A stretch of DNA of 64,000 nt from NCBI GenBank assembly GCA_023920165.1, contig CP089274.1:248001-312000 (forward strand), written 5' to 3'. This DNA is from Curvularia clavata. Lineage: Eukaryota. The notes beneath the pieces were generated by a model. The model worked only from the letters and a program-made list of their open reading frames with translations, was not told the DNA's origin and did not search any database. Positions 16,358 through 23,471 of this stretch are shown here, piece by piece; positions within the stretch are counted from its first letter, which is position 1; each line of letters starts with the position of its first letter. The position numbers were made by a program, and so were the translations under genes.

Positions 16358-16822
16358 ATCGCCTATCGTAAATATCCCTTTGTTGGGAATAGCTACTATA
16401 CAGGTACTTACAACGATATCATTCTATGGTACTTTGCAGATACAGCTTTGCTCTTACAACTAGCTACAACACTATCTAGCCCTAATCTACTGGTAATAAT
16501 GCTATCCCTATATATCACATGCAAGAAAGTATAATCATAATTACCCTCAGCTGAGGCTGATTTTGTGACAAATATTTACATCAGCTAAGAGCTGTCATAG
16601 AGTCAACCAAAAGGCAACGCAGCTAGAGGAGCTGACGCCTTGATTAAGCGCAACTGTTAAGGTTTCAGCTGGCATGTTGTCATTCCGCGAGCTCCGGAAA
16701 TGTTGAGTTAAATATCGCCGAATTAGATTAGTGAGTTCTTGCAAGAGTCTTTGTTGATTAGTAACGGATATCGAAAACGCTTTGAATGATGGAATACTAT
16801 GCGCAGAACTTTGATGTACCGC
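16358..16822 (+). repeat. Left arm of diverged inverted repeat (caspase promoter, 5' UTR and first 12 codons)
   Basis: Aligns by eye to the reverse complement of 22904-23471. Shared blocks include ttaccctcagctgaggctga, gattaagcgcaact, cattccgcgagctccgg, tcgaaaacgcttt, atgatggaat and ttgatgtaccgc. Confidence 0.93.
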
Positions 16823-18792
16823 ACACCCCTCCTCTATCACCGAGCGGCGCAAAACGCGCGTTGTTAATCGGCAGCCCTACTGGAGGACTTTCCGGACCAG
16901 AAACAGATCTCGTTACTATAGAGCAGGTTCTACGACGCTACAGCTTCAGTTGTACAATCTGCTTTCTCGAGGGACGAAGCAAGTTTCCTGCAACCAGAAA
17001 TGGTATCTTTGCCGCTTGGGAGCAATTGCTGCAGCAAACGTCTCCTGGGGACGCTGTTGTGATATACTATTCTGGACATGGAGGTCTATTCGAGAAAGAC
17101 AAGAATGATGTCTCGAATAAACGTTGGCGCCTGCAGTTCATTGTACCATTGGACTTCGATCGGACAACACCAGGCGATTTTCGTGGTATTACTGATGTTG
17201 AGATCTCCAGTTTCTTGATGCAATTGACAAAGCGCACTGATAACGTTACCGTCATTCTCGACTGTTGCCACTCGGCAAACATGGCACGAGGTCCTACGCG
17301 CGCGAAAGCACTTCTTCCTCGTGACTATCCAGAGGTCTGGCGCCATATTCAAGCAATGCTCCACCAAAAAACGATCGGCACAGATTTTTTCCTAGAAGGA
17401 AATCCCAATGTCGTCCGATTCGTGGGTGCGACGGCCTCTGGAAGCGCGTATGAAAAGACATTTTCCAATGGTAGGTGCATGGGCGCCTTCACTGAAGCCA
17501 TAACAGAAGCTTTGGAACTGGCACTTCATACAGCACCTTATACCCAATTATCATGGAGACGTATATTGGACCATGTCCGGGATCGAATGTCTCGCACGCT
17601 TCCAGAACAATACGTTGACGTTGAAGGCCCTGCCAAGCGATTTTGTTTCACCACTAGCCTTGAGACTCAATCCGAATCGCTTCCAATATCTATGGTACGG
17701 GGAGGCGTCGACTTGGTTCTCGCTGGAGGATGGCTTCATGGTGTTTCGAACGGAGACAGATATGCCATCCTGCCTTACAATGAATATAAGCCTACTTCAG
17801 CAAAACGGATCGCCACAGCGAAAGTCAGGCGTGTGGGTGTATCATATTCGGAAGTCTCTGTAGAATGGGAGCACCGCTTCAATGCTTTGCCAGAAGGCGC
17901 ACACGCAATACTCTGTGGCAAGGCCTTAAACCGTCTTCCGATTGCTGTTCACGGCGATGGCCAACTCCAGAAAGCGATGGTGTCACACATCGATCAATCG
18001 AAATATCTTCGAAACGCAGAGCCTAGCGAGCAGATTTCCAGCCTTGCCATCGTCAGAAAAGAGAATTCCAATATCGAGATGAAAACTTCAGTAGGCATTC
18101 TCCGCAGATGGGCAGTTGAGAGCGCAGATGAGTTACAACAGGCCGTTGAAAAGTCGATGACAGTGCTCACGAATCTCGCCAAAGCACAACATCTTCTCAC
18201 GTTGAAGAGCCGAATACCCTGGAACCACGGTCTCAAGGTCGAGTATGGCTTTGTCGATGGTGGAGTGCGCAGGCCCTTGACCGACCCAAATTACGTTCTC
18301 AGTGTTGGTCAACGCATATATATCTCTACGCGAAATACGAGCAGAGCCACAGTCTTCGTTTGGATCTTTGAACTCCTTGCTGACAATGTGGTTTTGTTAT
18401 CCAACTTGACCCCCAGCGGAAGAGAGATTCCTGCTGGTGGTCATTATAAATTCGGGGAAGTTGACCTCACCGACAAGCTGATTGGCTCAGAGTTACTTTG
18501 GCCCAATCATGTACCGGCGGACCAAGAGATTCATGTGAATGAGGTGGTGGTAGTCACCGACAGGATGATTGATCTTCACTGTCTCGAGACAGACTCAACC
18601 CTCCGTGAGCATCCTAAGCATCGTGAGCGCATTGAAACAGAGTTGGAAGATATCGTTGAACAGATTGGACATGGAGGCGTTCGTACGTGGCAAGAGAGTG
18701 AAGAGAGCTACAAGCCCTTAAAATTTGACGTTATGGGATTGTCCTATAAGTTGACACCAAGGGAGCGACATCAAAACACTAAGGACGGATGA
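16786..18792 (+). CDS. Caspase-like cysteine protease (peptidase C14/metacaspase-type domain) with long C-terminal extension, intronless, 668 aa
   Basis: KRALLIG first strand, ATRNGI, VVIYYSGHG (His98) and VILDCCHS (Cys161) catalytic dyad, AYE...GAFTEA p10-like motifs. C-terminal beta-rich domain (VGQRIYISTRNTSRATVFVWIFEL). Confidence 0.92.
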   Translation: MMEYYAQNFDVPHTPPLSPSGAKRALLIGSPTGGLSGPETDLVTIEQVLRRYSFSCTICFLEGRSKFPATRNGIFAAWEQLLQQTSPGDAVVIYYSGHGGLFEKDKNDVSNKRWRLQFIVPLDFDRTTPGDFRGITDVEISSFLMQLTKRTDNVTVILDCCHSANMARGPTRAKALLPRDYPEVWRHIQAMLHQKTIGTDFFLEGNPNVVRFVGATASGSAYEKTFSNGRCMGAFTEAITEALELALHTAPYTQLSWRRILDHVRDRMSRTLPEQYVDVEGPAKRFCFTTSLETQSESLPISMVRGGVDLVLAGGWLHGVSNGDRYAILPYNEYKPTSAKRIATAKVRRVGVSYSEVSVEWEHRFNALPEGAHAILCGKALNRLPIAVHGDGQLQKAMVSHIDQSKYLRNAEPSEQISSLAIVRKENSNIEMKTSVGILRRWAVESADELQQAVEKSMTVLTNLAKAQHLLTLKSRIPWNHGLKVEYGFVDGGVRRPLTDPNYVLSVGQRIYISTRNTSRATVFVWIFELLADNVVLLSNLTPSGREIPAGGHYKFGEVDLTDKLIGSELLWPNHVPADQEIHVNEVVVVTDRMIDLHCLETDSTLREHPKHRERIETELEDIVEQIGHGGVRTWQESEESYKPLKFDVMGLSYKLTPRERHQNTKDG

Positions 18793-22958: not shown

Positions 22959-23471
22959 TTGTCACTGATTGACAAAGACTCTTCTATAACAAAAACTCGC
23001 TGGTCTAACAAAGCGACTTCTAATACAACATTGCCGGAGCTCGCGGAATGATGGCATGCCAGCTGAGGTCTTGGTAGTTGCGCTTAATCCAGGCGCTAGC
23101 TACTCTAGCTACATTGCCTTCAGGCTGACTATGATAAGTCTCACAGCGCTTCGCCGACCAGCCAACATATTTCCAGAACGTTTATCGTCCTTTGTTGACT
23201 GGGAATAACATTTGTCATAGATTCAGCCTCAGCTGAGGGTAATAATAATTACGCTTTCTTACATGTGACAGGTAGGCATGGTACTCTTGCTGGTAGGTTA
23301 GCGCTAGACAGTGTTGCACCTGAGCGTAAGTAAAATTGTATTTGCTAAGTACTGTAAGATAATATTATTATAACTACACGTATATTTTATGCAGAGGTTT
23401 TGCTTCCATAGAACGTTATATGCATGTATATAGTAGCTGATCTCAACAAAGGTATATTCACGCTAAGCAAT
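22904..23471 (-). repeat. Right arm of diverged inverted repeat (TPR-CHAT promoter, 5' UTR and first ~18 codons)
   Basis: Reverse complement aligns with 16358-16822 and carries two extra segments of roughly 50-60 bp (near 23135-23195 and 23385-23430). Confidence 0.93.

Follow-up and report, generated by a model that had tools for sequence, protein, structure and literature searches.

Why do two otherwise dissimilar protease genes, lying next to each other in a fungal genome, begin with the same DNA? The question is posed by a stretch of 64,000 nucleotides from Curvularia clavata (GenBank assembly GCA_023920165.1, contig CP089274.1, positions 248,001 to 312,000), referred to here as the window, in whose coordinates all positions are given unless another locus is named. 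The window contains a caspase-domain (Peptidase_C14) gene on the forward strand (16786..18792), which is an intron-less open reading frame (ORF) of 668 aa, and a CHAT protease gene on the reverse strand (19017..22958), also an intron-less ORF, of 1313 aa. The two genes are convergent, with their stop codons 224 bp apart (18793-19016), and their 5′ ends lie in the two arms of an inverted repeat. The explanation that we favor, with a probability of about 0.7, is a lineage-specific inverted segmental duplication (or ectopic repair or conversion) within the protease pair, that is, a 5′-end capture between partner genes. The origin of this capture is well supported; its regulatory meaning we infer.

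A preliminary description of the window had placed the repeat at 16358-16822 and the reverse complement of 22904-23471, and it is a real one. When each arm was compared by blastn with the whole window, only the partner arm was returned (E 7.9e-48, plus a 43-nt piece at E 5e-6), and with both arms as queries there was no third copy within the 64 kb at E <= 0.01. In a MAFFT alignment of the arms, 346 of 463 aligned bases are identical and 117 are mismatched, i.e., the identity is 74.7%. A repeat search resolves the homology into four inverted blocks, all collinear and with 76-80% complementarity: 16743-16822 / 22904-22983 (80 nt, 80%) and 16601-16741 / 22990-23130 (141 nt, 77%) proximally, followed by 16453-16576 / 23207-23330 (124 nt, 77%) and 16358-16415 / 23414-23471 (58 nt, 76%). 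The two proximal blocks differ at 32 + 16 = 48 positions per 221 nt, with a 5-nt indel between them, which is exactly the tally of about 48 mismatches and one small indel that had been made by hand. Three segments are present in the right arm only, at 23374-23421 (48 nt), 23143-23194 (52 nt) and 22984-22988 (5 nt), according to the MAFFT alignment; the first two are the insertions formerly put at ~50-60 bp. No tandem repeats were found in the window.

The homology spans the aligned ATGATG of both genes (16786 / 22940) and stops 12 codons further on (16822 / 22904), as the preliminary description had it. The outer edge is fuzzy, with ~60% identity for ~20 nt past 16358, and between the edges identity is roughly even lengthwise, at 28-33 identical positions per 40 columns. 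The gene models for both genes (P0003 for the caspase, P0123 for CHAT) are single-exon and start at the homologous ATG-GAA; the model start of the caspase gene is the second ATG, at 16789, and that of the CHAT gene is at 22937 (MEFRTQ...). The left arm (16358..16822, + strand) therefore holds caspase upstream DNA, the leader and the first 12 codons, and the right arm (22904..23471, - strand) holds CHAT upstream DNA, the start codon(s) and the first 12-18 codons.

Which of the arms is the original can be read from the N-termini of the homologues, which for both proteins come mostly from filamentous ascomycetes. This origin of the homologues, together with a density of coding sequence that would be low in a prokaryote, marks the window as fungal. 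Only complete N-termini were counted; the incomplete sequences P0125, P0131, P0006, P0007 and P0013 were left out. The caspase N-terminus follows the motif M(x KTLSM)ME[FSY]..QN[LF]DVP, which is found in all three close caspase orthologues, namely the protein of the window (P0001, MMEYYAQNFDVP), P0004 (MPKTLSMMEFRAQNLDVP) and P0005 (MMESRAQNLDVP), and in none of the 10 more distant caspases. Among seven CHAT orthologues, the motif is present in two, that of the window (MSKTLSMMEFRTQNLDVP...) and P0126 (MLKTLSMMEFRAQNLDVP...). The other five (P0124, P0127, P0128, P0129 and P0130) have a different, mutually alignable start of the M..LF.G.E.P.GIIPF type, as exemplified by MGLLFKGTELPFGIIPF and MSVQFQGSEISIGIIPF. 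In a maximum-likelihood tree of the CHAT proteins, the sequences P0126, the window and P0125 form a clade, (P0126,(window,P0125)), with support 98/98; P0124 falls outside this motif clade, and P0127-P0129 are outgroups further out. Because the orthologue N-termini and the CHAT tree place the motif in this way, the direction of the copy is from caspase to CHAT. Judging from these sequences, it is well supported that the caspase gene was the donor (left arm) and the CHAT gene the recipient (right arm), in a single event in the ancestor of the window/P0126 clade. The earlier proposal that one of the genes had gained its upstream DNA and start from the other by inverted duplication is thus upheld, and it now has a polarity.

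Other sequence details bear on the states before and after the copy. P0124, the CHAT protein without the motif, and P0005, a caspase with it, are each encoded on a contig of 29,656 bp, which suggests that they share one contig; if so, their lineage would represent the pre-copy state of the pair. The caspase gene of the window has lost an upstream in-frame start (ATA, then TGA; 16770-16797) that is kept in the CHAT copy (MSKTLS) and in P0004 (MPKTLS). Sequences from four other runs carry 16787 T>C, by which the first ATG is gone, and 16796 A>T, by which the codon specifies Phe, the residue also found in the CHAT copy. Upstream of the right arm, a search of low power detected no remains of the former CHAT N-terminus; its best score of 14 was equalled in 60 of 100 shuffles.

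In our reconstruction, a piece of ~0.45-0.55 kb, comprising caspase upstream DNA, a leader with a short upstream ORF and the first 12-18 codons, was duplicated in inverted orientation, such that it came to form the 5′ end of the convergent CHAT neighbor. The junction is in frame, and CHAT's own start and roughly its first 11-14 codons have been replaced. In at least three of the lineages sampled (the window, P0126 and that of P0125) the CHAT gene, with the start it received, is still intact, and its next in-frame Met is residue 77. Since the ancestral start is gone, the next Met lies this far downstream and the gene has stayed intact, the copied start codon is presumably the one in use; that is, translation of CHAT would now initiate within the copied segment. 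Its promoter and leader would probably consist, at least in part, of copied DNA. The partners would then have cis-regulatory input in common, as well as a dodecapeptide at the N-terminus (MME-x3-QN-[LF]-DVP), and the arrangement would make sense functionally as a link between two parts of a module for proteolytic cell death or conflict. The arms have since drifted to ~75% identity.

The two genes are identified by their domains, and that they belong together is indicated by their bacterial counterparts. The caspase ORF matches Pfam Peptidase_C14 at residues 23-271 with 50.5 bits (cut-off 21.4). It contains YYSGHGG and LDCCHSA, which we take to be the usual catalytic His and Cys motifs of the caspase family; P0001 has both, and most of 13 aligned caspase homologues retain them, with a few rows varying by one residue. 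The C-terminal ~380 aa may resemble DUF4384-type bacterial clusters, a likeness that we treat as a lead only. The CHAT ORF matches Pfam CHAT (PF12770) at residues 1019-1313 with 187 bits (cut-off 24), and its H1162 and C1203, which form a caspase-like dyad, are invariant in a fungal-bacterial alignment of six sequences. As for N-terminal tetratricopeptide repeats (TPR), Pfam gives only a match to TPR_12 below threshold (18.5 bits, cut-off 30.1), and the PADLOC 'TPR' model matches at E 2.9e-5; all PADLOC matches were of a generic kind (caspase, TPR and BovA).

Genes of the same two kinds, caspase and CHAT, adjoin on one strand in four bacterial or metagenomic loci (L001, L003, L004 and L007). 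In L001, the only metagenomic locus recovered, a CHAT homologue is directly preceded on the same strand by a caspase-domain ORF (48-3404 of that locus); the CHAT match covers residues 19-1312, with 34% identity in the best segment. The caspase partner in L001 is a protein of 1118 aa with a C-terminal DUF7379 alpha/beta-hydrolase-like domain, which the fungal protein does not have. A further 79 bacterial or archaeal loci were found via the CHAT protein, and most of them match the CHAT domain only. A tblastn search with the fungal caspase matched 10 of the 80 loci (the 79 and L001); the query was mostly covered in L003 and L004 (Streptomyces) and in L007 (Lentzea), and over 485 residues in L067. 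With actinobacterial caspases as queries, further near full-length matches appeared in L065 and L067. The caspase and CHAT genes of L003, L004 and L007 are adjacent and co-directional, in either order. Five genome loci (L002, L004, L005, L007 and L069) have a CHAT match that extends as far as residues 62-319, and two of them have a caspase gene; the remaining three are on short-flanked contigs of 4.5-9.2 kb. For the fungi, three sequence sets suggest a pair on one contig, namely the window, P0005 with P0124, and P0006 with P0125, where contig sharing in the latter two rests on the equal sizes of the contigs. Because the same two gene types adjoin on one strand in bacteria, independently of the repeat, the view that the pair is an old module whose genes work as a unit is supported by these gene arrangements. 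The preliminary description had drawn the same conclusion from the repeat; the conclusion is supported, but by evidence from elsewhere.

The resemblance to the bacterial pairs extends over most of both proteins, with 28-30% identity for the caspase over up to residues 23-661 and 30-34% for CHAT over up to residues 19-1312. The arrangement of the genes is different, however. In L003, L004, L007 and L001 they are co-directional and 11-215 nt apart, such that one promoter could serve both, whereas the fungal genes are convergent and separately transcribed. It is conceivable, though we think it quite unlikely, that coupled control lost through fungal convergence was re-created by the copied promoter, upstream-ORF leader and start, as a eukaryotic substitute for an operon, and that the dodecapeptide (MMEFRAQNLD/VP, with an Asp-containing site at the slash) is also a common pro-peptide or tag that one protease cuts, for joint activation. 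Upstream of the actinobacterial pairs, we noted a Double-GTPase-like ORF (L003, 2015-4294) and a LuxR/AAA_16/TPR regulator (L007, 16-2784), and both are gene types typical of bacterial conflict islands.

To what extent do the arms still carry common information? Except for the 12 codons, they look non-coding by their pattern of substitution. Over the three ungapped blocks, none of the frames of the two strands has a synonymous excess (of the 10-23 codons that differ in a frame, 1-8 differ synonymously), and most sense frames of the arms carry stops. The absence of a synonymous excess argues against concealed coding sequence in the arms, with the antisense ORFs at 16595-16852 and 22782-23051 included. 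Rfam gives no match at E <= 0.1 over 15900-24100. The caspase leader contains a short upstream ORF of 10 codons, MLSFRELRKC followed by a stop (16674..16706, + strand). Its counterpart in the right arm, MPSFRELRQC..., is 31 codons long (22962..23057, - strand; stop at 22964-22962), and the first ten codons of the two are 8/10 identical as protein. The longest identical runs between the arms measure 21 and 18 nt. The former includes the perfect palindrome CCTCAGCTGAGG (16545..16556 and 23227-23238), and the latter includes TCCGCGAGCTCCGG, of the form CCG-N7-CGG (16684..16697 on the + strand and 23034-23047 on the - strand); neither sequence occurs anywhere else in the window. Both sequences are candidate factor sites, no more.

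The differences between the arms are dominated by transitions (85 of the 117 mismatches, the other 32 being transversions). At 42 of 126 sites where one arm has C in the context CpA, the other has T, as against 43 of 254 sites in other contexts, in a comparison of the two arms alone that leaves the changes unpolarised. The usual thresholds for repeat-induced point mutation (RIP) are a TpA/ApT index of at least 0.89 and a (CpA+TpG)/(ApC+GpT) index of at most 1.03. The arms give 1.04 and 1.10 for the first index, which passes, and 1.23 and 1.16 for the second, which does not. Arm divergence possibly includes some RIP-like mutation of CpA to TpA.

Three sequencing runs with the same species label, X5, X6 and X10, from two studies, were read as RNA. 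This status is a guess, based on their very uneven contig depths, on some flanks that have no contigs and on one contig that ends in adapter. The strain is ~3% off the window. Contigs of these runs cover the caspase gene at 16660-18946, 16664-19008 and 16620-20704, and they include left-arm sequence as a caspase leader (16620..16785, + strand; contig ends at 16620, 16660 and 16664). Caspase transcripts thus probably include 122-166 nt of left-arm sequence that lies upstream of the ATG. Both genes have contigs in all three runs, and both ORFs are collinear with them, with no internal joints. Contig cover in the three runs stops at 22936 in the right arm and at 16620 in the left arm, which says nothing on silence, and the contig depths of 36-54 for the caspase and ~3-7 for CHAT say nothing on expression level. 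We also observed that the X6 contig (4091 nt, 16620-20704) runs from the caspase leader through the gap between the genes into the 3′ part of CHAT; the other caspase contigs end at 18946 and 19008. The 3′ ends of the caspase and CHAT transcripts probably overlap as antisense.

Several of these observations weigh against a capture that couples the two genes, whose co-expression the preliminary description took to be hard-wired. Over the aligned bases the arms differ by 25%, in addition to indels of 48, 52 and 5 nt, and a TATATAT in the left arm (16509-16515) aligns with CTACCTG in the right arm and has no counterpart there; the regulatory equivalence of the arms may already be lost. The 18- and 21-nt identities are, by our own rough estimate, about what 75% identity over 460 nt would yield by chance. 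The probable-RNA contigs of CHAT, from two studies, end at 22927 and 22936, and a DNA contig reaches 22974. The comparison hints weakly at a right arm that is not transcribed as a leader, although the contig ends may equally be an assembly drop-off at a depth of 5-7. The polarity of the copy rests on predicted protein N-termini, which depend on gene models. In addition, the N-termini of P0004 and P0126 are identical at 17 of 18 residues, as compared with 8 of 12 for the window's own pair, and, given this discrepancy, gene conversion after the event or unequal rates make it difficult to apply a simple clock with one event. Much of this is what one would expect if the copy were a neutral structural accident that gave CHAT a start codon and no common regulation, with the two genes expressed independently: the divergence and the three indels, the uniform decay along the arms, the absence of any clearly constrained frame or block, the TATA-like box on one side only and, as a weak hint, the end of the CHAT contigs at the coding start. 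Yet CHAT has remained intact with the copied start in the window, in P0126 and in the P0125 lineage since the event, the two genes form a conserved module, whose members one would expect to be co-regulated, and both have contigs in the same three probable-RNA runs. We therefore consider a neutral accident possible, if on the unlikely side.

The close agreement between P0004 and P0126 also fits a history in which the shared 5′ end is older than the clade, was kept alike by recurrent gene conversion and was lost in the P0124 lineage, and the ancestral-type CHAT N-terminus does have a faintly motif-like pattern (F-basic-x3-L-x-P). That pattern is within chance for 10 residues, however, and the motif maps to one well-supported clade. 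The N-terminus of P0124, moreover, is clearly that of the outgroups P0127-P0129, which could not be regained after a loss. An older origin is thus improbable. Even more so is a version of the mobile or invertible cassette that the preliminary description raised as an alternative, in which the arms would be terminal inverted repeats and the cassette, 7 kb long, would carry the protease pair. The geometry alone, two inverted arms around 6 kb, speaks for it. Against it, the 64 kb contain only two copies of the arm, and each arm stops in frame after 12 codons of its gene. The only interior ORFs of at least 150 aa, and the ones compared with Pfam, are the two protease genes, which leaves no transposase or recombinase of that size (smaller ORFs were not scanned), and no direct repeat is evident outside the arms on reading the sequence and the alignment, without a formal test. 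Contigs of the DNA run X3 cross both the outer arm edges (15000-16480 and 23160-23673) and the inner ones (16542-17861 and 22558-22974) collinearly with the window, at depths of 3.5-8.2, which are within the range of the other X3 contigs on this stretch. More generally, the four runs compared with the window all have contigs collinear with it, and no inversion was seen in them. Finally, a relative appears to have the pair without the CHAT-side arm (P0124), and bacteria have a simple adjacent pair. The cassette is not supported by these data, and we return to the 5′-end capture.

Chimeric genes, and the capture of a promoter or 5′ exon by a small segmental duplication, are a known kind of event. 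The present case resembles it in that duplicated regulatory DNA and first codons are joined in frame and replace a native 5′ end. It differs in that donor and recipient are adjacent, convergent partners, and a diverged inverted repeat brackets the pair, with no new gene elsewhere. Amyloid-motif gene pairs of the HET-S/NWD2 type, in which adjacent cell-death genes share a short terminal peptide, are another known arrangement, and the two genes described here likewise share such a peptide. An amyloid-signalling motif was rejected as the explanation, as the DNA homology runs 430-510 bp upstream at the same ~75-80% identity and there is no synonymous excess. Because the homology extends into non-coding DNA, the shared peptide reflects descent from the duplication rather than visible selection on a signalling motif. 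Fungal pairs of this type are mentioned in the accessible part of a review (PMC10197012).

The closest parallels in domain content come from fungal cell-death loci. In the parts of the sources available to us, fungal TPR-CHAT proteases are described as forming two-gene clusters with gasdermins (Clave et al. 2022, PMC8851545; review PMC10197012). The locus studied here is like these gasdermin-protease clusters (of the het-Q1/het-Q2 kind), as far as those texts present them, in combining a large protease with a C-terminal CHAT domain, a tight two-gene cluster, a filamentous fungal host and bacterial counterparts (PMC8851545, PMC10197012). It is unlike them in its partner, which is a caspase-C14 protein with a DUF4384-like tail and not a gasdermin. 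The same portions of these texts describe no shared 5′ repeat for gasdermin-protease clusters (PMC8851545, PMC10197012). The hetB gene of Aspergillus fumigatus, which is idiomorphic and acts in heterokaryon incompatibility, encodes a CHAT protein of 1,327 residues, according to the accessible text (PMC11138114). The 1313-aa protein is similar to it in size and in its C-terminal CHAT domain, and a HET-domain gene lies 2 kb away; this likeness, drawn from what that text gives, is one of size and domain. No caspase partner of hetB is described in that portion of the source (PMC11138114).

Within the literature searched, as far as its text was accessible (fungal promoter or inverted duplication and co-expression; DUF4384, caspase and CHAT), we found no description of a caspase-C14/CHAT pair with a copied 5′ end. 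Likewise, the accessible literature on fungal protease-controlled cell death does not name a caspase-CHAT two-gene module. What appears to be new here is that the 5′ capture took place between two genes of a conserved pair, that its origin can be dated and that a sister lineage is without the copy. The direction, the junction and the phylogenetic position of a promoter-plus-start capture between conserved functional partners can all be read at this locus. If it is true that the copied arm drives CHAT, the locus would be a natural experiment on the coupling of former operon partners in a eukaryote, with the sister lineage P0124/P0005, which appears to have the pair without the copy, as a built-in control. 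The caspase-CHAT module that is common to fungi and actinobacteria may also deserve study as a proteolytic cascade.

The surroundings of the pair offer some further observations. Twelve neighboring ORFs examined with Pfam include rhodanese, short-chain dehydrogenase (SDR), heterokaryon incompatibility (HET), DHH and hydrolase domains. There is no gasdermin among these 12, although short, intron-split or non-Pfam fungal gasdermins might escape such a comparison. The HET-domain ORF (25170-27140, 656 aa) lies 2.2 kb from the CHAT gene, past the short-chain dehydrogenase. On the other side, the ~11 kb between 4605 and 15411 contain a single ORF of at least 150 aa (9198-9761), which has no Pfam match; this ORF-poor stretch could consist of intron-rich genes or decayed repeats, or could simply be gene-poor.

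Variation between strains is unevenly distributed over the pair. In the 5′ part of CHAT (21482-22936), other strains differ by ~7-8% (108/1408, 65/910 and 86/1013 letters), as compared with ~3% in the middle of CHAT (54/1821) and in the caspase gene (76/2346). The N-terminal repeat region of CHAT may be hypervariable, like allorecognition genes. Lastly, one DNA contig of run X3 (depth 2.3) joins 16683 to 18580, skipping 1896 bases and hence most of the caspase gene; it may represent a deletion allele or another organism in the sample.

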